A DNA stretch of 64,000 nucleotides. Source: Mobula hypostoma. Its lineage: Eukaryota. The stretch is taken from the NCBI RefSeq assembly GCF_963921235.1, contig NC_086108.1, positions 68,946,001 through 69,010,000 on the forward strand, in the 5' to 3' direction. The position numbers and the translations under genes are program-made. This document shows positions 2,570 through 59,885 of the stretch, in pieces (the first letter of the stretch is position 1; each line of letters begins with the position of its first letter). The notes under the pieces are model-generated. The model worked only from the letters and a program-made list of their open reading frames with translations, was not told the origin of the DNA and made no database searches.

Positions 2570-4060
2570 ACTATGTAGCCACACAAAATGGCAATCCTCT
2601 GAGGCCAGGTGCAATACACATTACCAACAGACATATCACAGGTAGTTATGGTTTCAGAAAAAAAAGTCACAAAGAAAACAAAAAAATATAGCCCAATTGC
2701 CAGAGTGGCGTGACTGTAGCCCTGGTCCAGCTTGTTCTTCCATCGAGCAAACACCGGAGAGCAATGTCCCCTCTAATTTGTAATGACCCGCATGTGCAAA
2801 AATCTTGTGCTGTGCAATTTTTTGCTCAGTGACAATAATGTGTGCACACTGAATTTTATATATAGAGGATTCAGTTTAACAGCTAGCAAAACACCGTCAA
2901 TATGAATTTTGATCTCTGGGTTTGAACATTTTCTCTCTCTCGTTCATCCACACTCTCACAAAACATACATAGGAGGCCTGTAGCGGATAATGAAGGACTT
3001 TTTCGCCGGAGCTTTTACACACCATCCATATGTGATTTGCTTGCTAAATGAAGCTTTAAAAAGTCAAGTTTCCAAATATGACTCCACTTCTTCCCACCTG
3101 CAAATTCTCCAGCAACTTTTACATCACGACGATACATGCAGATAACACCAGTTCTGCACATAAATATTTTTCGTAGCTGTACCTTCTTGACTTCATGAGC
3201 TTTTGGTATAGCTGTTGCTACCGCTTCATTAAGCTATTCTAATTTAAATGAACTAGCAGTTCTTTTATGCGTCATGCCCTTTGCTTCTTTGGAATTTGAC
3301 ACAGTGAATCAATAATTTCTTCAATAAAAACAATATACATCAGCCAGTTCTAAAATCTGCAGACAAATCCACAAACTCCACGTTGTCATCACTGTCCACA
3401 TCAAAAACCGGAAAAGGAGATGGGATTGTGTATGAACACGAAATATACTTAACATGCCAACAAAGGAGCGGGTGACAACCTTTTGTGCGCAGTTTAAATT
3501 GCTTTGTGTGTTACTAGCAAAAGATGTGTGCGCGTGCACACCTCATAGGGAACATTGCTGGAGAGCAGCACCAATGGGAAGGGCCAGACTCCAACCCAAT
3601 ACAGACTCCAGAGCACCTCACAGAGGCTCTCCCACACCACCCTGGCATCTCCCCTACCAGGCGGCATCAAAAGGGGAGCCCGCAGCTTTGGTCTAGTCCT
3701 TATCACAACCGAGCAAATGCAGCTCTGTCACCATTGGTCTCACCAATGAACCAGTGAACTGGACTTGCAGTATACTACATTACCAATGTCCAACAACGTC
3801 CTCTGATCTCAATAAAAACATCCAAGACAATCAGTCGCACCCCGCATCATCACAGAACAACGGTATGCAACATGTCCAGGCAACAACACAACAACAGTAT
3901 GCATTAAGTCCAGCTCCATTAACTTATCGATCAACTCACTGATGGGATAGTCCAGCAGTACATGATGTTTTTAGTATCCAGCGGCAACTTGCAATTGTAA
4001 AAAAAAAATGTACTGGATGAACAAATACACCTTCGAATAGACCTGGAGTGGCTGCTGCAT
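2570..4060 (-). mobile_element. Non-autonomous retroposon (same family as 13394-14218), split by a hAT insertion
   Basis: Shares aaccagtgaa-tggac-tgcagtat-ctacattacc-atgtccaaca and ggctgctgcatc blocks with 13880-14200. Confidence 0.6.
2762..3557 (-). mobile_element. Internally deleted hAT DNA transposon with a zinc-finger remnant
   Basis: TIRs caatgtccc / gggaacattg; 8-bp TSD ccggagag (2754-2761) / ctggagag (3558-3565). Minus frame at about 3300-3015 reads GVICMYRRD...WKLDFLKLHLASKSH, resembling a TTF-type zinc finger. Confidence 0.8.
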
Positions 4061-10395: not shown

Positions 10396-10654
10396 TTAGT
10401 AGTGAGGGGGTGGTGGGTTTAAAAAAAAACACACACAAGTGAGCTAAGGGTTACCTAAAATACTTTCATTCTGATTTAATAGTATTGATGAATGTGTATA
10501 GCAAGTGACAACCCAAAATGCCGGTCAACAAAGGCAGCCCATCATGATTAAAAACACAAACATGAGGAAATCTGCAGATGCTGGAAATTCAAACAACACA
10601 CACAAAAAATGCTGGTGAACGCCACAGGCCAGGCAACACCTATAGGAAGAGGTA

Positions 10655-10692
10655 CAGCCGACATTTCGAGCCAAGACCCTTCGTCAGGACTA
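10655..10692 (-). ncRNA. Hammerhead ribozyme copy, slightly degenerate, sense to FAF1
   Basis: Reverse complement reads UAGUC-CUGACGA-A-GGGUCUUGGCUC-GAAA-UGUC^GGCUG. Confidence 0.6.
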
Positions 10693-11577
10693 ACTGAAAG
10701 AAGAGATAGTAAGAAATTTGAAAGTGGGAGGGGGAGGGGGAGATCCGAAATGATAGGAGAAGACAGGAGGGGGAGGGATAGAACTCAGAGCTGGAAAGTT
10801 GATTGGCAAAAGGGATACAAGGCTGGAGAAGGGAGAGGATCATGGGACCAGAGGCCTAGGGAGAAAGAAAGCGGGGGTGGGGGGGAGCCCAGAGTTATAG
10901 TGAGAGGGCAAGGGGAACCCTATTCCTAGTGGGGTGGCAGAAGGGTGGGGTGAGAACAGATGTGCATGAAATGGGAGAGATGTGTTTGAGAGCAGAGTTG
11001 ATGGTGGAGGAAGGACTAGGACTTCCACTAGGAATAGGGTTCCCCTTTGTCCTCACCTACCACCCCATCAGCCTCCGGGTCCAACATATAATTCTCCGTA
11101 ACTTCCGCCACCTCCAACGGGATCCCACCACTAAGCACATCTTTCCCTCCCCCCCCTCTGCTTTCCGCAGGGATTGCTCCCTACGCGACTCCCTTGTCCA
11201 TTCGTCCCTGCCCCCCATCCCTTCCCACCGATGTCCCTCCTGGCATTTATCCTTGTAAGTGGAACAAGTACTACATATGCCCTTACACTTCCTCCCTCAC
11301 CACCATGCAGGGCCCCAGACAGTCTTTCCAGGCGAGGCGACATTTCACCTGTGAGTCGGCTGGGGTGATATACTGCGTCTGGTGCTCACAATGTGGCCTT
11401 CTATATATTGGCGAGACCCAATGCGGGTGGGAGACTGTTTCGCTGAATACCTATGCTCTGTCCGCCAGAGAAAGCAGGATCTCTCAGTGGCCACACATTT
11501 TAATTCCACGTCCCATTCCCATTCTTATATATCTATCCATGGCCTCCTCGACTGTCAAGATGAAGCCACACTCAGGT

Positions 11578-12210
11578 TAGATTAGATTATGAGGACGCTC
11601 AGTCCTCGTTTATTGTCATTTAGAAATGCATGCATTAAAAAATGATACAATGTTCCTCCAGAATGATATCACAAGAAACACAGGACAAACCAAGACTAAA
11701 ACTGATGAAACCACATAATTATAACATATAGTTACAACAGTGCAAAGCAATACCGTAATTTGATAAAGAGCAGACCATGGGCACGGTAAAAAAAAGTCTC
11801 AAAGTCCCGATAGCCTCATCATCTCATGCAGGTGGTAGAAGGGAGAAACTCTCCCTGCCATGAACCTCCAAGCACCGCAAACTTGCCGATGCAGCACCAT
11901 TGGAAACACCCGACCGCAGCGGACTCTCTGAGTCCGTCCAAAAACTTCGAGCCTCCGACCAGCCCCTCCAACACAGCCTCTCTGAGCACCACCCTCTGCC
12001 GAGCACTTCGACCCTGCCCCGGCCACTGAACAACAAGCAAAGCCGAGAACTCAGGGCCTTCTCCTCCAGAAATTCTGAACCACACACTAGCAGCAGCAGT
12101 GAAGCAGGCATTTCAGAAGTTTCACCAGATGTTCCTCCATGCTCTCACGTCCGTCTCCATCAATTCAGGATTGTGCACGGAACCCTACTTGACAAATAAC
12201 AGACATCCAA
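11578..12210 (-). mobile_element. Non-coding retroposon of about 630 bp with a (TCTAA)n tail, nested in the Penelope element
   Basis: caggtt repeated on both sides; the Penelope frame resumes (ATLR|LEEQHLIF); homologous to 22845-23432. Confidence 0.8.
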
Positions 12211-12400
12211 CAGGTTGGAGGAACAACACCTGATATTCCCTCGGCCTCCCGTCCCATGATCCTCTCCCTTCTCCAGCCTTGCATCCCTTTTGCCAATCAA
12301 CTTTCTAGCTCTTAGCTCCATCGCTCCCCCTCCTGTCTTCTCCTATCATTTTGCATCTCCCCCTCCCACTTTCAAATCTTTTACTATCTCTTCTTTCAGT

Positions 12401-12438
12401 TAGTCCTGACGAAGGGTCTTGGCCCGAAACGTCGACTG
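12401..12438 (+). ncRNA. Minimal type-I hammerhead ribozyme in a Penelope pseudo-LTR
   Basis: UAGUC-CUGACGA-A-GGGUC UU GGCCC-GAAA-CGUC^GACUG: conserved core, stem I UAGUC/GACUG, stem II, and a palindromic ACGU mini stem III. Confidence 0.8.
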
Positions 12439-12959
12439 TACCTCTTCCTATAGATGCTGCCTGGCCTGCTGCATTCACCAGCATTTTTTGTGTCCATCAT
12501 GATTAATGCAGCTGCTTCAGTACTACATCCTGCATAATTTACCCCCAAAGGGATTAAAATACTCATCATTTTTCTTTCACAATGTGCTTCCAAGCAAGAC
12601 CTTAGTATCTCATTTCTAATTTCCGAGGCAAAATGCAACATTTACCATTAAATGTAGATTTCACCTTGATCTCACTCATTGGAGATCTACAGAAGCACTC
12701 AGCAGTATTAATATTCATTCTGTTGTTTCTTAGCTTCAACAAAACAGATTCTGTCTTTGATCCTTCTGCAACATCCTCTCTCTCGAGCATTATAAGATTG
12801 TCTTTAATTAATCCTGTACTCCTCTCCCTTTCTTTCCTTCCCCAGCCGTGTACAATTCAGGAATCTTTATGCTCAAATAAAGATAGATGAGAAAAGGGCC
12901 AGCCATTCTGCCTCTTGCACCTGCACCACTGCTTACTGTGAACTTATTGTGACACATGC

Positions 12960-46690: not shown

Positions 46691-46897
46691 AATACAGAAA
46701 GAGGCTTTGTGAACGGACAAAATATGTTGGATGAAATATAATACAGAACATGATGTGGGAAAGTAGAAAAATGGGGTATTTTATAAATATAAAAGATCAT
46801 AAGTGCTGTTATTCTGAGGGACCCGAGTGATCTAGCACTTTCATTAAAGATGCACAAATCTTTCTTGGTTAATGAGCTGTTCATTTTAAAAGCTTAC

Positions 46898-47097
46898 CAA
46901 CTGTGTTGGTATCTTCAACTACCACCTCCACATTTCTGTCACGGTATTCCACTCTAAAATTCAACATTCTTGGTTGCCTTTCCACTATTGGTCTTGATGG
47001 TGTTTTGGGGCAGAAGGTCGAGGAAGTGGAAGAGGAAGAGGACTGACCAGTAGATCCAAACGTTGGATCCTGTGACGTCTCACCACTAACAAACTCA
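46898..47097 (-). CDS. FAF1: FAF1 coding exon (equivalent to exon 4), 200 nt, start of UBL1
   Basis: tttgcAG acceptor and GTaag donor. Encodes EFVSGETSQDPTFGSTGQSSSSSTSSTFCPKTPSRPIVERQPRMLNFRVEYRDRNVEVVVEDTNTV(G), matching FAF1 IVERQPRMLDFRVEYRDRNVDVVLED. Confidence 0.96.
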
Positions 47098-47632
47098 CTG
47101 CAAACAGATAAAAAAATTCAAACATGAACAATAATATTACCAAAACATCTAAAACAGACATAGGAAACTACTCTGGCATACCAAACAATCACTGGTCAAT
47201 TTCTTAGATAGTTAGCTCTGGTTTGTGCATTGAAAAGTTATCTGTATCTGGGCAGCTGGCTGCATGGCTGGCCAAGTTATGAACTGATCAAAACTATAAA
47301 AATGGTAAAGCAAGATTTTATGGACAAGATTTTCAATATTATACTTTTTTTAAAAAAAGTCACCAACTAAAGCTGGTTTTAATTTAGTTTGTAAAATGTA
47401 AACCATTTCAGAACAAATATTGAAAGCCCTAAAAAGAGTGTAATAAAATCTTTCACAATGAATTCAGAATTATTCATACATTTACACCCAAGGACACAGA
47501 AACTTCGAAATTCTCATAATAAATCGAAATCACAATACAACTTCCACTTCCTCTATTATGCAAATGTTCATCTGTAGGTTACAAATGCATTAATAATGAG
47601 AAAACCATACAAAAATAACAACCTCAACAATT

Positions 47633-48094
47633 ACGAGGAAATCTGCAGATGCTGGAATTTCAAGCAATACAAGTTGCTGGTGAACGCAGCAGGCCAGGCA
47701 GCATCTCTAGGAAGAGGTACAGTCAACGTTTCAGGCCGAGACCCTTTGTCAGGACTAACTGAAAGAAGACCTAGTAAGAGATTTGAAAGTGGGAGGGGGA
47801 GGGGGAGATCCGAAATGATAGGAGAAGACGGCGGGGGGGAGGGATGGAGCCAAGAGCTGGACAGGTGATTGGCAAAAGGGATATGAGAGGATCATGGGAC
47901 AGGAGGCCTAAGGAGAAAGAATCCCCCTCCTGTCTTCTCCTATCATTTCGGATCTCCCCCTCCCCCTCTCAAATCTCTTACTAGCTCTTCTTTCAGTTAG
48001 TCCTGACGAAGGGCCTCGGCCCAAAACGTCGACTATACCTCTTCCTAGAGATGCTGCCTGGCCTGCTGCATTCACCAGCAACTTTTATGTGTGT
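47633..48094. mobile_element. Non-coding palindromic Penelope derivative (two inverted pLTRs, each with a hammerhead motif)
   Basis: 47670-47830 is the reverse complement of 47930-48085; 13-bp flanks aacctcaacaatt (47620-47632) / aacctctacaatt (48095-48107). Confidence 0.85.
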
Positions 48095-49674
48095 AACCTC
48101 TACAATTGTAGGGTTTTAGCAGATTATAAAAACTTGTTTTAAATATCTCAATTATTCTGATGACAATCAAGAAAAATAGCTAAGCAGCTTTTGAATTATA
48201 CTTCTTCGCAGTTGGTAGGACAATTCCTACTGATAATTCAAGTTATCTATACATATATTTAACACAACTGGAATCAAATCTGAAATGCTGACACACTAAC
48301 AGAATGACTAAGTGTCTTCCGGTTGCTTTGGATCCATATGAAAATTTACTTTTTTATTATTTCTCATCTTTTTAAAATCACACGAGCTGGTCACCTAGCC
48401 CAAAGTCTCCATGCCAACCCTGAGAGGATTCGTATTCCTCAAATTTCTTACATGCCCATCAACTACTCCTATTTTCAGACAACCTGCCAATTCACAGTAG
48501 TCAATTAATTTACCTTTGGGACACGGGAGTAAATTAGGGCAGATCAACCAAAGGCACTGCATCTGTTCAGCACCCACAGCTATGCCCCTGTGACATTCAT
48601 GCACTCTCATTCACCAATAACTCATAAAATGGTTGACATGAGAATTAAGCAAATATCATCTTGATATAATTTAGAAAATTATGACTTGGGTTTAGATATG
48701 TTGCAAGTGAATAATTAGCACAAATGGATATATTCTGAATTTAATCATTTAACGAAGTGTACTTAATCATTTAACGAAGTGTCATATAAAGATGAACGCA
48801 CAAGGGGGAATAGGCCACTCAGCCACAGGGGTGAAACTTGTTCAACAGGAAACCATTAAGCAGACAAGGTCTATATTTTCCAGAGATCAGGTAAGTGAGA
48901 AGTGATCTAACTTCAGTTTAAGATGGTGTTACTGAAGGTGGGCAACAACTTAATGGGTGTTTTCAAAGCAAGAAATTTGACTAAATGCTCTATTAATAAC
49001 ACTTCTTATATGGAAAATTGTGGTAAACCATCACTGCAAACAATGAAGTAGTGAATGAAGGCAAGGCTGATCGGTGGGTCGAGGCGTGTGAATGCAAGAC
49101 AGACTAGAGCAAGGTAGAGGCATGTTCCTGGAGAAGTTGGAACTTTGGAGACAACGTTGGAGCGACCAGAGCGGTACTAAAGTTGAAGCGGAGTTGTTTT
49201 GGTGCCCAACTACCTAAACGGGGAGCAAGGTTTGATCCTTCTAAACGCCGCATTGATTTGGAAAGATTGAATACATGCCAGAAGCAGCCTAGAGTATCAC
49301 TGCAGCGGGGCCCAGGTTCGAGTGTGGGGGACAATCCAGTGCTTGAACAATTTAAACACTAGGCCAAATGGACTGAAAAGGCAGGGTGTCAGGACTGGAG
49401 ACAAGAGTTGAGCTGGATCTGCTCCACAATGTTTTACTCTGTTCTCCTCAGCGTTGAGGCTGAGGCTGTGCCCTGCTCTGGCTCCTACGCGCTTCGTGTC
49501 TGCAAGCTTCACAGAGATTTTGCCTTACTATACAATGAGCTAAGAACTAGGCTACGGGTCTACTCTGGCTGCTCCAGGATTCAGATCCATGGACTCAAGT
49601 TGGTTCGGAATGCTGCTGCTTGCTTTTACTGTTTGCGTGATTTGTGGGGTTTTTTCGCCCTCTTTCTCAGCATA

Positions 49675-52370
49675 CAGGTTTCCCCCGCCATCCGAAGGTA
49701 GAGTGTTCCAATGAAACAGTTCGTAAGTCGAAATGTCGTAAAGTGAAGAAGCAATTACCATTTATTAACATGGGAAAAATTTTTGAGCATTTCCAGACCC
49801 AAAAAATAACCTACCAAAACATGCCAAATAACACATAAAACCTAAAATAACAGTAACATAAAGTAAAAGCAGGAATGATATGATAAATACACAGCCTATA
49901 TAAAGTAGAAATACTTTTTGCAATCATTGAAGTACTGTCTAGCACAGCGAAAATCTCACGCATGTGCTCTCGGCAGAAGCACTCTCTCCAGTAACCTTTA
50001 AACTATGAGGCTGCCAAATTGTACCAAATAACAAATCATACTAAATAACACAAAAATACACAGCCCATATAAAGTAGAAATACTTTTTGCAATCATTGAA
50101 GCACAGTCTAGCGCAGCGAAAATCTCACGCATGCGCTCTCGGCGCAGGCGCTGTCGGTGGAAGCACTCTCTCCAGTAACCTTTAAGCTATGAGGCTGCCA
50201 AATCGTACCAAATAACAAATCATACTAAATAACACAAGAATACACAACCTATATAAAGTAGAAATAATGTATGTATAGTGTAGTTTCACTTACGGGAATC
50301 GGGATGGTGTGTTAGGCTGAGTCATCGGAAATTGGGGTGGTGGGAGGTAGAGGAGACTGGGGTGTCATCTCATCGTAATCTATTTTCAATAGGGCAGCCA
50401 GGTCATCATCTTCTATGTCTGCCTGCCTCGATGTCGAAGGTCGAGATTCGTCGTCTGCTGTGGCTGATGTGCAAGGCTTGAAAAACGACAGTATACTTGA
50501 CTGCTGAGCCTCGCGCATTTTTAGATCATAGAGTTCTTTGTAAGCACTCAAAACATCCTGCAAACCTACCCTAAACCTACGTGCCCTTTCAAAATTAAAG
50601 TCATACTTTTCTGCAATCATTGCAGCGTTGTCAATCGCAGCGAAAATCTCACGCAACTGCTTCACGTTCAGTCCTGGACGACTTCATTTTTGCCACTGCG
50701 TTCGGTTTCGATTGTTATCCTTTCCTCTTGCAATTGCATCAGCTCTTCATCTGTCAATTCTTGGTCGTGGAATGCCAAAACCTCTTCAACATCATCTTCG
50801 TCAGCTTCCACAAACCCAGCCTCCTTAGCCAAGCTCACTATTGTCGTATTTATTGTTGATGGTTCGAAGCCTTTAAAATCGTTCACTGCTTCGGGACATA
50901 GTTTCCTCCAAACGCCATTTCTCATCGAGACTGTTAGCCTATCGAGAGCATCTCCAATGTTGGCGATTGCCAGTTTTATATTGTAGTCTTTCCAGATCTC
51001 TCACAAAGATGCTTCGGAGTTTCCCTCTCTGTCAAGAGCACTTACAATAAAACGCATCACATTTTGCGTATAGTAAGCCTTAATTGTGGCTATTAGGCCT
51101 TGGCCACACGGCTGCAGCAACGATGTCGTATTCGGCGGTAAGAGCGCAATACGCATGTTACTGCCATACTCGGTAATGGCAGACGGATGAGCAGCACAAT
51201 TATCCACAATCACAAGACACCTATTATCAAGGTCATCTTCTCTACAGTATTTTTCAACAAAAGGACTAACGTATCTGCTCATGTACTCAGAAAAAAGCAC
51301 TTGGGTGTTCCAACTGCTTGGATGTGAACGGAACACAACGGGAAGTGTTTTCTTATCAACGCCTTTAAGTGCCCTTGGATTTTCTGAATGGTACCCTAGT
51401 AGAAGCTTAATGGCGTTAGTAATAGGCATTAGGGTAAGCCTGTCCTTCGATGCCTTGTATCCCTTTAGCCTGCTTTTCTTCTTTCGAAATAAATGTCTTA
51501 CTCAGCAATTTTTTCCAATAAATTGCAGTTTCGTCACAGTTAAACACTTGCTTATAGGAATAACCACCCTCTGTAATTATTTACTTCAGTTTTGCTGGGG
51601 ACCTTTCAGCAGCTTCAGTTATCAACCGAAGCACTCTGTCCAATAAACGTTAAACTATGAAGCTGCCCTCACCTCAGAAACTGATCAAACCACCCGTGAC
51701 TACCTTTAAATTCCACTTTCGCAATACTTTCATCACCAATGGCCAGTGCTTTCTGTTTCAGCTTATTAAAAAGACTGACTGATTTCTCCTTAAGTATAAG
51801 ATAACTTAAAGGAACACCACGTTTTGTACACCCATCAATCCACTCAAGCAATAGACTTTCCATTTTATCCATTACTGGATGCCAACTAAGAGAGACCACT
51901 TTGCTACGAGCAGAGCCAACAGTAACATCGGCAGCTTTCAAGATTTTTTTCTCCGCGTGTAAATAGTGCGAATGGTGGATGCAGGCAAGTTCAACACGCA
52001 GACAATGTCCTTACTTCGTTCACCATGGTCGAAATGCTTAATTATGTCTAGTTTTACGCTAAGTGTAACACCCTTATGAGCTCTTTTAGGCTTTTCCGAT
52101 ACCTTAGAACTCACCTCGCTAACAGATACACAAAATAAATCGAGATAAAGCATGTGTTTAAGCAATGGCGGCTAGAATGCAGTTCTGGGGGAGGAGCTTG
52201 GCTGCTCGAGGCGCGCGCTGTTTTTTTCCCCGCACACTGCCATTTTTCGCACGCTGCTTTTTTTCATAACAGTGAAAAAACCTTCTGTTAGCGAAAACAG
52301 GGTACTAATGTAGGTCTTTCGTAACAGTGAGGTTTCATAAAGCAAACGTTCGAAAAGTGGGGGACACCTG
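49675..52370 (-). mobile_element. Tigger/pogo DNA transposon, near full length, with a frameshifted transposase
   Basis: TA TSDs; TIRs caggtttccccc / gggggacacctg. HTH-psq (VTLSVKLDIIK), CENP-B HTH (MESLLLEWI, FKGSHGWF) and DDE_1 (IVDNCAAH, LPPNTTSLLQP) remnants. Confidence 0.93.
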
Positions 52371-52669
52371 TATTAGGTGTTGGCCTTTTATTAAATTGGG
52401 TTCTTTCGGGTTTCTTGTTTTGTGGCTGCCTGTAAGCAGACAAACTTCAAGGCTGTATAACTTATACGTACTTTGATTGAAACATACAAAGGTTTAATTG
52501 GTCTGATATTTCCTCTCGTTCCTACCTAGAACTAGGAGGTCAAAGTTTCTTAATAAGGGTTTGACTATTTACATACCAGATGGCAAGAAAGTTCTGTATT
52601 CAAGAGGCCAGAAGAGATTCAGATACTGAATACATTCAATTCAAAGATCAACACTTTTTCAAAATCTCA

Positions 52670-54150
52670 CTTTTTCGTACACAATTTTACAGATTGACAG
52701 AAACACCAGAGTTTTAAATGCAGAACAACAATTTGAGTGGAGATACAACTATTTCTGGAGCAATCCTCCAGTTCTACTGCAAGGAATAATCTGATCCCAA
52801 AGCCAATGCTGTATTCAGTACTCCTTGGTATCAGCTGGCTTCCATAAATGACAAAGGTTGCAGAAGCATGATGCATCATCCACTCAAGACCTCCAGCTGA
52901 AGATGATTCCAAAATTATGTTTTTTTTCCCAGTACTCACCTGCCACACTCCACCAACACAAAGAGAATGATATTCCTGGAGCCATCTTCTCCTGTTAGCT
53001 GTATAATTGGGCTAAACTTGACAAAACTGCAGAGCTGTGATATTATCTGTTGATTCGCAAATTGCTTAACTCACATAATTTTACTTGTTTAGCATACATG
53101 TTATATGCTACTGCATCATTAAACTGGACTTTTTAGGAATAATTTATGCTGTTGCCAGCATGCCCTGCTGTGCTCCTCAGTGAACCAGGACTGGTCCAAT
53201 AGCTTGATTGTCATGTAAAGGATAGATACTGACAGACTGTACTGGAATACTACTCTGGTAAGGTAAATATCTTTCAGTTTCTCTTGTATTCCAAATTTTA
53301 TATTATACATTCAGACTAACCAAATTATCATGATGCTAATGTCACACAACATTGAAGGATGCCCTTAGTGTGAAAATCAGACCATCTCCAAAAGGATAAT
53401 CTGATAGTCAACACTGTCACAGACAGATACAACCATAAAAAGCTGATTACTGAGTGAGGTTATGCAAGTTTCTCCTTCATATTCATTTGTTCATCACCTG
53501 CCAGAAAGCAAGTTCTTCAGAGGTCAGCAAGTAATATTACTACGACTGTTAATCTTAGTAACAGATATAGAAGTCCACTCAGTGCTTCTTCCAAGTATTT
53601 TCAATACAGAGAAATGACAATGCATTAGAAGAAAGAGAATGGTAACTAATGAATCTACTCTTGATAACTCAAGTTCTTGTCTGTGTTTGACATGATGCCA
53701 TGATATATACTGGCATTCCATCATTCTTGTACATAAATATAACACCACTTCTAGTGGCATTGTCCCACCAGCGCGGTCTGGATGAATTCAAGATTTACAA
53801 CGGAGAAGTTAAGGTATTAGCTGTGGAGCTACAATGCTGAGAGTGAGAATGTCAGGTAGACCATAGACAGCTCTTCCTATTTAGACATGGAGCTCCAAGC
53901 ACTCCTGAGGACATTACCAGTCAACTGGAGGCAAATGAGATGACAGATAATAAATTCTTAATCATTATCCTTATTCTATTTTGACGCAGCTGTTCTTATA
54001 TAATAAAAATGGCTTGCATGACCATTTCAGAAGGCAGTTAAGGATGAATAACACTGCTGTGAATCCGCATTCATAAAGATCAAGCTGAGCCAGGGCACCA
54101 AATTTTATTCCCTCCATAGTATCAGTTAATCAGATGATTTTATTTTGTTT
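52670..54150 (-). mobile_element. Very old CR1/L2-like remnant
   Basis: Faint LINE-like remnants (for example gagtggatgatgcatcatg and ggtttattt-like segments) with no intact motif. Confidence 0.35.
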
Positions 54151-55738
54151 TTTTGATAAATAGACAAGGAGCTTCATATTCACCATTCCTCAGACTAATT
54201 TTACTTAAAAATTAATTTAATTTAGATTCCACATCTGCACCCACTAGGACCTTATTCAGGCCCAACTGCAGCACCATTTCCTGACTGTAGGTGGCCACGT
54301 ACAAAATTAAGCATCCACCATCACCTTTTAATAAGCAACTAAGTTAGTTTTGCCAGTGATGACCACATTCCAAGACATTTTTAAATTGAAACAGGAAGCA
54401 AGTTAACATTTTCCTTGTAAAGAGAATGAGCAAATCAGCTCAATGAAGTCTTTTTACACTACACTGCAATAGTTTACAAGTTAGAATTAAATTATATTTT
54501 AATAGCTATTGCTAATCAACATTGGTAAACTTGAAGACTAGGGAATTATGCTGCAAATTCAAAAATAATTGCCAGTTATTGGTTAGAGAAAAGGAAAAGC
54601 AGAAATCTGAAAATGGGATGGTGGAACAGAGGGGCGGTGGAAATCAGCAAACAAATCAACTAAAACAAAACAATTAGAAATAAACATCTCTTTGACACGT
54701 TTAACGATATTGAATTAAAATAGAAAACTTTGTGAAACTTGTGTAGTCATAACCAAGCTGCACATACAGTGCCTATAAAAAGTATTCACCCCCCCCCCCG
54801 AAAGCTTCCATGTTTTATTGTTTTGCAACATTGAATCAGTGGATTTAATTTGGCTTTTTTGACACTGATCAACAGAAAAGATCCTTTTGTGTCAAAATGA
54901 AAACAAGTTTTTACAAATGGGTCAAAATTTATTACAAATATTAAACACAGAATAATTGAATTCAAGTTAGTATTTAGTAAATACACCTTTGACAGAAATT
55001 AGAGCCTCAAGTCTATGTGGATAGGTCTCTATCAGCTTGGCATATCTAGACACTACAATTTTTCTCCACTCTTCTTTACAAAGCTACCTAAGCTCAGTCA
55101 GATTGCAAGGGGATTATGAGTGAACAGCCCTTTTTAAATCTAGCCACAAATTCTCAGTTAGATTGAGGTCTAAACTCTGACTTGGCCACTCCAAACACTG
55201 TTGTTTTTAAGCCATTCTTGTGCAGCTTTGGCTTTGTCTTGCTGGAAAACAAATCTTCTCTCAAGTTGCAGTTTGCTTGCAGACTGCACCAGATTTTCTT
55301 CCAAGACTTCCCTGTATTATGCTCCATTCATTTTACTCTCTACCTTCACAAGTCTTCCAGGGCCTGCGGCAGTGAAGCATCCCCACAGCACGATGCTACC
55401 ATGTCTCACAGTAAGGACGGTGTGCTCTTGTTGATGTGCAGTATTGACTTACATCAAACATAGCTATTAATCTGATGGTAGAAAGCTCAAGTTTGGTTTC
55501 ATCAGACCATAACATCTTCTTCCAGCTGCCTCCAGTCTCCCACATGCCTTCTGGCAAACTCTAGCCAAGATTTCATGAGTTTCCCCCCTCTCCACCAAGA
55601 GGTTTTCTCTTTGCCACTCTCCCATAAAGCTGCCATTAGTGAAACAACAGGAATTCTGCAGATGCTGGAAATTCAAGCAACATACATCAAAGTTGCTGGT
55701 GAACGCAGCAGGCCAGGCAGCATCTATAGGAAGAGGCG

Positions 55739-55776
55739 CAGTCGACGTTTCAGGCCGAGACCCTTCGTCAGGACTA
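55739..55776 (-). ncRNA. Minimal type-I hammerhead ribozyme, intact, sense to the FAF1 pre-mRNA
   Basis: Reverse complement reads UAGUC-CUGACGA-A-GGGUC UC GGCCU-GAAA-CGUC^GACUG. Confidence 0.8.
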
Positions 55777-56715
55777 ACTGAAGGAAGAGTGAGTAAGGGA
55801 TTTGAAAGCTGGAGGGGGAGGGGGAGATGCAAAATGATAGGAGAAGACAGGAGGGGAAGGGAGGTAACTTCCGCCACCTCCAACGGGATCCCACCACTAA
55901 GCATATCTTTCCCTCCCCGCCTCTCTCTGCATTCCGCAGGGATCGCTCCCTACACAACTCCCTTGTCCATTCGTCCCCCCCATCCCTCCCCACTGATCTC
56001 CCTCCTGGCACTTATCCGTGTAAGCGGAACAAGTGCTACACATGCCCTTACACTTCCTCCCTTACCACCATTCAGGGCCCCAAACAGTCCTTCCAGGTGA
56101 GGCATCACTTCACCTGTGAGTCGACTGGGGTGATATACTGCGTCCGGTGCTCCCGATGTGGCCTTTTATATATTGGTGAGACCCGACGCAGACTGGGAGA
56201 CCGCTTTGCTGAACATCTACGCTCTGTCCGCCAGAGAAAGCAGGATCTCCCAGTGGCCACACATTTTAATTCCACATCCCATTCCCATTCTGACATGTCT
56301 ATCCACGGCCTCCTCTACTGTAAAGATGAAGCCACACTCAGGTTGGAGGAACAACACCTTATATTCCGTCTGGGTAGCCTCCAACCTGATGGCATGAACA
56401 TTGACTTCTCTAACTTCCGCTAGGCCCCACCTCCCCCTCGTACCCCATCTATTACTCTTTTTAATGCACACATTCTTTCTCTCACTCTCCTTTTTCTCCC
56501 TCTGTCCCTCTGAATATACCTCTTGCCCATCCTCTGGGTCACCCCCCCCCCGTCTTTCTTCCCGGACCTCCTGTCCCATGATCCTCTCGTATCCCCTTCT
56601 GCCTATCACCTGTCCAGCTCTCGGCTCCATCCCTCCCCCTCCTGTCTTCTCCTATCATTTTGCATCTCCCCCTCCCCCTCCAGCTTTCAAATCCCTTACT
56701 CACTCTTCCTTCAGT

Positions 56716-56753
56716 TAGTCCTGACGAAGGGTCTCGGCCTGAAACGTCGACTG
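56716..56753 (+). ncRNA. Minimal type-I hammerhead ribozyme, intact
   Basis: tagtc ctgacga a gggtctcggcct gaaa cgtc^gactg; predicted cleavage after 56748. Confidence 0.8.
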
Positions 56754-57205
56754 CGCCTCTTCCTATAGATGCTGCCTGGCCTGCTGCGTTCACCAGCAAC
56801 TTTGATGTATGTTGCATTAGTGAAACACCTGGACAACAGTTGTTGTATATGCAGTCTCTCCCATCTCCGCCAATGAAGCTTGTTACCCCACCAGAACTGT
56901 CATAAGTCTCTTGGTGGCCTCCCTCACTAATTCTCTTCTTGCACAGTCACTCAGTTTTTGAAGACGGCCTGCTCTAGGCAGATTTACAGCTGTGCCGTAT
57001 TCTTTCCATTTCTTGATGATTGACTTAACTATACTCCAAGGGATATTCAGTGACTTGGAAATTTTCTTATATCCATCTCCTGACTTGTGCTTTTCAATCT
57101 TTTCGCCGAGTTGCTTGGAGTGTTCTTTTGCCTTCATGGTGCAATTTTTGCCAGGATACTGACTCACCAGCAGTTAGACCTTCCAGATACAGGTGTATTT
57201 TTACT

Positions 57206-57558
57206 GTTGTTCGCCCATTGTTGCCGTCGATGAGGACCTCGACACCATTATGATGGTGTCGAGACTAGCGCGTGATTTGGATTTAAGTGAGGTGGAGTTG
57301 CGCAGCGTCAGCCTCACTCTCTCTTCCCAATTCCCATCTGGATCCAGTGGCAAGACAGAGTCTAGACGGCTGGAGATGGGACTAGGCGCAGTGGATGACC
57401 AGGACGTCTTCTGTGTCTTGTCCTGCTCTGCACGTTCCACGATGCTTGCAGAGACCGCCGCCTTGACCGTTGGACCTTCCATTGGTCTCGTCCGCTCAAT
57501 CCGCCGGAGTCTGTCTTCACATGCTGGGATAGACAACTCCCTATCTCACCGAGGGTAT
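57206..57558 (-). mobile_element. 353-bp RTE-related non-autonomous retroposon
   Basis: 12-bp TSD tgtatttttact (57194-57205 / 57559-57570); (AAC) tail; 11-bp stem-loop near the 3' end. Confidence 0.75.
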
Positions 57559-58084
57559 TGTATTTTTACTACAATCAATTGAAACACCTGACTGCACACA
57601 GGTGATCTCCATGTAACTAATTACACGATTTCTAAAAATCAACTGGCTACACCAGTGATGACTTGGTGTGTCATATTAAAGGGGGTGAATACTTATGCAA
57701 TCAATTACTTTGTCATTTATATTTGTAATTAATTTAGGTCACTTTGTAGAGATTAGTTTTCACTTTGATATGAAAGAGTCTTTTTCTGTTGATCAGTGTC
57801 AAAAAAAACCAAATTTAATCCACTGTGATTCAATGTTGTAAAACAATAAAACATAAAACTTCCAAGAGGGTGAATACTTTTTAAATCGGCACTGTATGTG
57901 GTACAGTTCTGGTCTCTTCACTGGATAAGCCAAATTTAAAAGTTCCAGGAACAACTGAATAACTTGCATTTTTCAGAAATGTTGCAGGTTACCTGAATGG
58001 TCTTTAAAATTATGACAGAATAGGAGAATATACTCTATGTAGAGAGGGCTTCCACTTGTGGGAAAATCATAAATTTTAGACAAT

Positions 58085-58490
58085 TATGGACTGGAAAACC
58101 AATGCCATGGCTGTTTACAAGAAGGGGATGAGCAGACTCAATTTTCTAAGAAAGCTGAGATCCTTCAATGTGTGCAGCAGGACTTTGGAGATCTTTTACC
58201 AGTCTGTTGAAGCAAGGGCAGTCTTCTTTGATGCTTTATGTTGGGGGAGCAGCATCGATGCTGGTGATGCAAAAAGACCAAATAAACTCATCAAAAAAGC
58301 TGGATTCATCCTTGGCTACAACCTGGACTCTTGAGTTAGTGGTGGAGAAGAGGTCCATCATGGACAATCTGGCACATCCTCTCCATGACTACTGAATTAG
58401 CAGTGGAGCACCTTTTTGAACAGACTCATTCAGCTTCACTGTCACAAGGATCGTTACAGAAAATCTTTCCTACAAAATGCAATAAGTATA
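58085..58490 (+). mobile_element. Rex/L2-type LINE 3' fragment
   Basis: SRLNFLRKLRSFNVC...IFYQSV...CWGSSI. Confidence 0.8.
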
Positions 58491-58492
58491 TA

Positions 58493-59395
58493 CAGGTGGC
58501 CCCTGTTTTCTGAACGTTCGCTTTACGACACCTCGCTGTTACGAACGACCTACATTAGTTACCTGTTTTCACTAACAGAAGGTGTTTTCACTGTTACAAA
58601 AAAAGGCAGCGCGCGTCCAAACAGCCAAGCTCCTCCCCTGGAACTCCATTCTAGCAGGCATTGCTTAAACACGTGCTTCATCTTGATTTATTTTGTGCAT
58701 CCATTAGCAAGATAAGTTCTAAGGTATCAGAAAAGCCCAAAAGAGCTCGTAAGGGTGTTACACTTAGCGTAAAACTAGACATAATTAGTGTTTCGATTGT
58801 GGTGAACGAAGTAAGAACATTGTCCACGCGTTGAACTTGCCTGCATCCACCATTCACACTTTTTAAACACAGAGAGAAAGAATTTTGAAAGCTGCCAATG
58901 TTACTGTTGGTTCTGCTCGTAGCAAAGTGGTCTCTCTTAGTCGGCATCCAATAATGGATAAAATGGAAAGTCTATTGCTTGAGTGGATTGATGGGTGTAC
59001 AAAGCATGGTGTTCCATGAAGTTTTCTTGTACTTACGGAGAAATCAGTCAGTCTTCTTAATAAGCTGAAACAGAAAGCACTGGACAATGGTGATGAAAGT
59101 GTTGTGAAAGTGGAATTTAAAGGTAGTCGTGGGTGGTTTGATTGGTTTCTGAGGCGAGGGCAGCTTCATTGTTTAACGTTTACGGGAGAGAGTGCTTCGG
59201 CTGATACTGAAGCTGCCGAAAAGTTCCCAGCAGAACTGAAGAAATAATTACAGAAGGTAGTTATTCATATGTGTTTAACCGCGACGAAACTGCAATTTAT
59301 TGGGAAAAATTGTCGAGCAAGACATTTATTTCGATGGAAGAAAAGCAGGCTGAGGGACACCAGGCATTGAAGGACAGGTTTACCCTAATGTCTAT
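58493..59395 (+). mobile_element. 5' part of a second copy of the Tigger element
   Basis: TA then caggtggccc TIR; highly similar to the reverse complement of about 51425-52370. Confidence 0.9.
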
Positions 59396-59838
59396 TTCAA
59401 ACTATTTGACCTAACATATAATTCACAAGCAGACACAAAGTTGATAAGCGAAAAGCAAGGAAATGCAAAAGCTGGAAATCTGAAATAAAACAGACTGCTA
59501 TAAATAAATCAGTAGTTCAGATAGTACCTGTGGAGAGAGAAACTGAATTAATATTTTAGTTACGTTCATTAGAACCTTTCTGATTTAAGTAAGCATGTTT
59601 TGGTAATATTACCTTTGTTCAGTGACTTTTAAATTGAGTAGCATTTTCTTAAATAAACTGGAATAAATTAGCTGCAATGAATCTCAGCTTGAAAAGTAAA
59701 TGAATGTCCAGTCATAGAAAACAGTATTTTTTGAAAAACTATATCTTTTTTAGAAGTTTATGCCTCAACTTCTGCAACATTTTTCTTCTGAGTATATTTA
59801 ATCAACCTGTGAAAAATGGTAAAGAAAAGAATACTTAC

Positions 59839-59885
59839 TTTTGTAAAATGCCATTCTCTTGTGGAATTATGCCATTAATAGCTGC
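59839..59885 (-). CDS. FAF1: FAF1 internal coding exon (equivalent to human exon 3), 47 nt
   Basis: Minus strand: pyrimidine tract-tttatAG | GCA GCT ATT AAT GGC ATA ATT CCA CAA GAG AAT GGC ATT TTA CAA AA | GTaagt = AAINGIIPQENGILQ(N). Matches the recalled FAF1 segment AAINGVIPQENGILQS. The phase-2 end fits the next exon. Confidence 0.93.

Follow-up and report, generated by a model that had tools for sequence, protein, structure and literature searches.

The window analysed here is a stretch of 64,000 nucleotides from Mobula hypostoma, and the host gene that runs through it on the minus strand is FAF1. A peptide translated from an exon in the window matched ray and shark FAS-associated factor 1 proteins with as much as 99% identity, and mapping one retrieved FAF1 protein back onto the DNA placed five minus-strand exons in the window. 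Two of these flank the feature under study: 59841-59885 (residues 38-52 of protein P0001) lies upstream of it and 46890-47099 (residues 53-122 of P0001) downstream, which puts a Penelope-like element (PLE) inside the FAF1 intron 47099-59841. The gene as a whole extends over at least 351 kb on contig C50. A second isoform, P0002, differs in its N-terminus (residues 1-19), which matches repeated DNA at loci L008, L011, L018, and L028 and may, judging from these matches, be a repeat-derived annotation.

The Penelope copy sits within an older repeat, a decayed Tc1/Sleeping Beauty-like transposon on the minus strand (54761-57900) with terminal inverted repeats at 54761-54974 and 57688-57900 and a Pfam HTH_SB match at 56883-57170 (E 1.4e-15). 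Identical 13-bp duplications at 55634-55646 and 56815-56827 on the plus strand bound the 1168-bp copy, and the final 5 bases of the left duplication match the element tail too. In three related Tc1 copies, the site matching the 13-bp duplication is present once. Two further repeats lie in this neighborhood. The Tc1 fossil also holds a GC-richer insert of about 350 bp (about 57205-57560), by eye with an 11-bp flanking duplication, and a pair of 960-bp inverted repeats with 84% identity (51415-52373 and 58490-59402) surrounds both the fossil and the Penelope copy. A Pfam search named no family for this pair; a frame within it (59020-59247), also without a Pfam match, resembles a Tigger/pogo transposase.

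The Penelope copy itself consists of two arms whose element 3' ends point outwards in one 13-bp duplication, their truncated 5' ends being joined. The left arm (55647-55862, minus strand) covers unit positions 3295 to about 3510-3515 of the family's full-length unit, at 99.1% identity to a natural full unit, and the right arm (55864-56814, plus strand) covers 2528 to about 3479 at 99.6%; a single base at the head-to-head junction (55863) belongs to neither. Only the left arm carries the PLE tail (55647-55676, minus strand), by which it outreaches the right arm by 30 to 35 nt; in tandem copies, the sequence of this tail is where the reading frame of the following unit starts. Apart from the tail, 55677-55862 and 56630-56815 are inverted copies of 186 nt each, identical at 185 positions, with the sole mismatch at 55857 beside the central junction. 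Each arm contains the same 38-nt minimal hammerhead motif, one at 56716-56753 on the plus strand, antisense to FAF1, with a predicted cut at 56748/56749, and the other at 55739-55776 on the minus strand, the strand of the FAF1 pre-mRNA, where the hammerhead consensus would place the cut between 55744 and 55743. Because the arms are so nearly identical and belong to a huge repeat family, a chance origin of the mirrored motifs is excluded.

The frame 55863-56423 on the plus strand is open for 186 residues and encodes the RT-EN linker, with a CX4CxxC motif, followed by a GIY-YIG endonuclease (Pfam E 7.3e-5, 23.4 bits against a cut-off of 22.6). We rejected a coding role for this frame: it is a 5'-truncated stump without reverse transcriptase (RT), its first methionine comes only at residue 145 of 186, and it runs antisense to FAF1. 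Lacking RT, the copy cannot move by itself. An earlier note, made from the letters of this DNA, had described much of this anatomy, and its description largely stands. The assignment to a Penelope-like element in a FAF1 intron agrees with the family copies and the flanking minus-strand exons, its limits of 55647-56814 coincide exactly with the DNA between the duplications, both motifs are identical and lie where it had put them, and its near-perfect arms of about 185 bp are the 186-nt arms with one mismatch. The uninterrupted GIY-YIG frame that it had reported is likewise real, with the refinement that it is an RT-less remnant.

With the endonuclease remnant as query, at least 150 copies with 99-100% protein identity were recovered from the animal's own genome, a count taken from the 150 scored among 224,485 first-look candidates. 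A DNA search of the genome with the left arm returned no match, but common words were skipped in that search, so it is uninformative. Sister copies reveal a 3515-bp unit in partial tandems with a 1043-aa ORF that encodes RT and then a C-terminal GIY-YIG endonuclease, of which the FAF1-intron copy retains the endonuclease end only; Pfam recovered RVT_1 (E 2e-4, below its cut-off) and GIY-YIG in these copies. The translations contain the CCHH motif, whose cysteines fall between GIY and YIG, as well as the DKG motif, as these are defined in Craig et al. 2021 (PMC8557442), pLTRs formed by partial tandems occur at L053, L054, and L056, and inverted 5' copies, one-sided tails, and target duplications were also found. 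The CX4CxxC of the RT-EN linker falls within the CX2-5CxxC pattern of Neptune and Nematis, which PMC8557442 describes as missing from Penelope/Poseidon. By these motif definitions, the family fits an endonuclease-positive PLE with a linker of Neptune/Nematis type rather than Penelope/Poseidon type.

Other members of the family illustrate its range of structures. At L056 (G000:C9:153173500-153183499), one 14-bp duplication encloses a full unit together with a partial tandem and an inverted arm, and two same-strand motifs 3515 bp apart give a dimer-competent layout. Two older inverted copies share the window with the one studied here. That at 47636-48094, in the same FAF1 intron, has both hammerhead cores broken (G8 to A in one arm, G12 to A in the other), and matches to Rfam microRNA families at 47769-47985 were set aside as the hairpin of this other inverted Penelope copy. 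The second, at 10558-12483, is interrupted; its plus-strand motif at 12406 is intact, and its minus-strand motif at 10687 is mutated. In the FAF1 and CDKAL1-like gene spans, many short copies start at unit 3376-3383, where the hammerhead has its 5' edge.

The inverted layout is not new. Craig et al. 2021 (PMC8557442) and the account of Pen2a_Av of Adineta vaga (PMC3846280) already describe a 5'-truncated body with an inverted 5'-truncated copy at its head, and Cervera and de la Pena 2014 (PMC4209133) noted paired motifs that lie on opposite strands at distances of 100-700 bp. Like the insertions in the first two accounts, the FAF1-intron copy has a 30-40-bp tail at one end only, a target duplication, a C-terminal GIY-YIG domain, and its core cysteines; unlike the examples given there, it has no direct upstream pLTR and no RT, and its duplication measures 13 bp as opposed to 8-10 bp in the rotifer examples. 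Since element class, motif, and layout are all in print, the FAF1-intron insertion is an ordinary one.

What the ray family adds becomes apparent when many copies are compared. Seventy loci comprised 33 single-armed copies, 25 inverted copies with both ends seen, 8 inverted copies with one end outside the retrieved sequence, and 4 without a visible 5' end; the 25 fully seen inverted rows represent 24 distinct insertions, one pair being the same insertion, and include the FAF1-intron copy. To estimate how common the layout is, we used 35 ten-kb sister loci drawn from the endonuclease-remnant matches irrespective of structure, with six rows skipped, five loci picked for long frames excluded, and an intact endonuclease required. 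Fourteen of the 35 were inverted, and as copies with two endonucleases were counted twice, the share may be nearer one third.

Each of the 24 distinct inverted insertions with both ends seen pairs one tailed arm with one tail-less arm. The arm that reaches the far site ends at unit 3513-3528 in every case, and the other ends at 3474-3487 in 21 and at 3434-3446 in 3. If the arms were independent, this one-tail rule would arise by chance with a probability of about 2e-8, taking as base rate the ends of the single-armed copies (20 far, 13 near). The strictness of the rule and the clustering of the tail-less end as well distinguish the ray family from the inverted PLEs in the published accounts cited above. 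The duplications around inverted copies measure 11-18 bp, with 13 or 14 bp in 17 of 24, and those of at least 11 bp, scored by one method, accompany 23 of 24 inverted but 13 of 33 single-armed copies. The two arms of an insertion also resemble each other, with a mean difference of 0.67%, whereas they differ from other insertions by 1.56%. In each of the 24 insertions, the distance between the arms is smaller than that to the median other copy, and minor alleles present in both arms number 136 (8 private), as against 29 discordant common ones.

We lean, by a modest margin of belief, toward reading these inverted PLEs as a record of asymmetric two-ended priming, in which a single complex would make a cut with a 13-14-nt stagger and prime both target ends on one uncut RNA, or on two RNAs of one source locus, invariably using each of two fixed start sites once. 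At the FAF1 locus, the endonuclease would have cut the target with a stagger of 13 nt, and each target 3' end would then have primed reverse transcription, one at the far site with the tail included and the other at the near site. Both cDNA copies would have passed the uncut ribozyme, stopped early, and been joined. The family data are most simply read as a single staggered cut whose two 3' ends prime on one template, or on the transcripts of one source; gene conversion or a single source locus could also account for the similarity of the arms.

This sequence of events bears directly on the hammerheads. The ribozyme cut site corresponds to unit 3413, with the near start site about 65 nt and the far one about 100 nt beyond it, so the RNA template must have been uncut. 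Because the start sites fall just 3' of the hammerhead, any two-armed copy with arms longer than about 100-135 nt will carry the motif on both strands, as all 25 inverted rows do. The PAc (Poseidon) element of Anolis carolinensis (Frangieh et al. 2024, PMC11167929) behaves similarly in vitro, where both target strands are cut and extended, two internal RT start sites bracket the tail, and an uncut hammerhead is copied. Unlike PAc as described there, the ray family has the CX2-5CxxC linker, its ribozyme lies upstream of the ORF without overlapping the ORF start, and its targets follow no clear ATT rule (24 sites, by eye). A search by title and abstract, which subscription papers mostly escaped, found no printed two-ended priming model for PLEs.

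An alternative route to an inverted arm is a single priming event followed by fold-back or self-priming, on cDNA or on an antisense RNA hairpin. Self-priming on an antisense template has been proposed for head-to-head rotifer PLEs with junction palindromes (PMC3846280), junction overlaps of 1-8 nt are common in the ray inverted copies, and a fold-back copy would be expected to share alleles with its template just as the arms do. The ends of the arms, however, fit this route poorly. Copying a tail-less arm by fold-back cannot yield a tail, yet in 13 of 25 rows it is the endonuclease-anchored arm that lacks the tail. The outer ends of both arms cluster at two fixed sites, while their 5' truncation points are unrelated (2528 and 3295 in the FAF1-intron copy), and the junction of that copy contains no palindrome. 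We therefore regard fold-back as an unlikely origin of the inverted arms.

Whether the hammerheads do anything in the host transcript is a separate matter. A motif descriptor matched both copies with a complete core (CUGANGA, GAAA, and NUH), five of five pairs in stem I, and three to four pairs in stem II, and positions 15-16 lie in a 4-nt palindrome that would permit dimers as in the minimal class; the earlier assignment to a minimal type-I hammerhead with palindromic stem III is thus borne out. As in the metazoan PLE hammerheads of PMC4209133, stem I has 5 bp, the core consists of CUGANGA and GAAA, an extra base follows A9, and the palindromic stem III is loopless. Departures from that class, as described there, concern stem II, which has 3-4 bp compared with 7-8 bp given for Schistosoma. 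The pair adjoining the core is G.U if the extra A is included and A-U if it is not, in place of the conserved G10.1-C11.1. This loss characterizes the young, currently amplifying ray subfamily: at its loci L053-L072 and L093-L112, 71 of 72 motifs have U rather than C ahead of GAAA, while several older copies have C.

The earlier description of the hammerhead as intact consequently holds for the core but not for the whole: besides the altered pair next to the core, the monomer has no stem III, only a 2-nt loop, and the 38-mer at its predicted energy minimum does not adopt the hammerhead fold, the core pairing with itself instead (z -1.24). No hammerhead fold appeared in predictions for 58-, 126-, and 144-nt contexts of the motif, and the fold predicted for two copies does not clearly correspond to the active dimer. 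In the hammerhead search that the note had proposed as a check, the descriptor matched, and an Rfam scan of the window named no hammerhead family at E up to 1. PMC4209133 reports undetectable cleavage for a minimal PLE hammerhead monomer and low cleavage for dimers, and according to PMC11167929 the anole hammerhead cut only together with the element's protein, with no anole RNA-seq reads ending at the cut site. A dimer partner in the FAF1 transcript would have to be another same-strand motif, as the complementary arm would be unable to serve, and the nearest intact one found lies about 70 kb downstream. Without stem III in the monomer and with no partner nearby, the sense motif would be idle regardless of pairing. 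By analogy with the anole system, an active family could nonetheless cut such introns in trans through the element protein.

Overall, we are confident that the locus represents a PLE of high copy number, equipped with an endonuclease, that inserted recently in 5'-truncated, head-to-head form, and the two hammerheads are likely inert passengers of integration.

The earlier note had gone further, proposing that fold-back could silence self-cleavage and make the intronic insertion tolerable. Spelled out, the idea would be that the arm transcribed first masks a sense hammerhead which would otherwise sever the FAF1 pre-mRNA, so that introns keep inverted copies while solo copies are purged from them. 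Its structural premises are supported. The FAF1 pre-mRNA does hold the sense motif and its exact complement, the complement is transcribed ahead of the sense motif whichever strand is read, and the whole element is predicted to fold into one long hairpin with its arms paired end to end (-408 kcal/mol for the arm duplex), as the note had supposed. Tandem hammerhead repeats are, moreover, reported in a preprint to be excluded from Xenopus introns (bioRxiv 10.64898/2026.07.22.740005), by analogy with which dimer-competent motifs may be harmful in introns; that finding would concern dimer-competent arrays, not the inverted layout. Earlier work cited in PMC2995048 found that a hammerhead cut in an intron left splicing efficient, whereas a fast HDV ribozyme did not.

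To look for the predicted purging, we counted motifs in 914 kb of FAF1, a CDKAL1-like gene, and gephyrin, all on the minus strand and all assumed to be transcribed. The second of these was recognized by six collinear TIGR01578 matches, and we take it to be CDKAL1. Of 22 descriptor hits, the 17 with a palindromic stem III were counted and represent 15 insertions; the five without one (3 sense and 2 antisense, one of them outside the PLE family) were left out. Six insertions carry an unshielded sense motif, 2 an unshielded antisense motif, and 7 are inverted, two of these covering the motif partly. Unshielded sense motifs are thus not depleted (6 versus 2, one-sided p for depletion 0.96), and inverted copies are not enriched (7 of 15 versus 14 of 35, Fisher p 0.76), in a sample that is small (15 insertions, 3 genes) and of mixed ages and against a comparison set that is genome-wide rather than verified as intergenic. 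Among the six unshielded sense motifs, stem I reaches four of five pairs in 3, and for 2 a complement matching at 28/38 positions occurs at a distance of 4-5 kb. The clearest counter-example (C1:79666118) is an unshielded 2.2-kb copy, 98% identical to the unit, that places the same 38-mer on the gephyrin pre-mRNA strand with no complement better than 21/38 within 8 kb.

A weak silencing effect is compatible with so small an intron sample. The counts, the inactivity of unaided monomers of the minimal class as published (PMC4209133 and PMC11167929), and the youth of the FAF1-intron insertion, whose arms are 185/186 identical and which is too young to show long-term retention, nevertheless make silencing-for-tolerance very improbable, and this part of the earlier proposal is not supported; the fold-back is predicted, yet there is likely nothing to silence. 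Least credible of all is that the hairpin acts on the host as long dsRNA through editing, small RNAs, or altered FAF1 splicing rather than through the ribozyme: a near-perfect duplex of 186 bp is predicted and the same intron holds other inverted pairs (47636-48094, and 51415-52373 with 58490-59402), but no exon lies between the arms and the insertion is very young and one among very many.

As one among very many young copies, the FAF1-intron insertion carries little weight by itself. Whether minimal hammerheads endanger host pre-mRNAs receives an initial, small-scale test in the intron counts, which speak against it. The pattern across the family, with its one-tail rule, 13-14-bp duplications, and allele sharing between arms, bears on the unsolved mechanism of PLE integration and yields predictions that can be tried in vitro. 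If two-ended priming proves true, a young ray family that has dispensed with the canonical G-C pair would be a good system in which to study both PLE integration and the need for the ribozyme.
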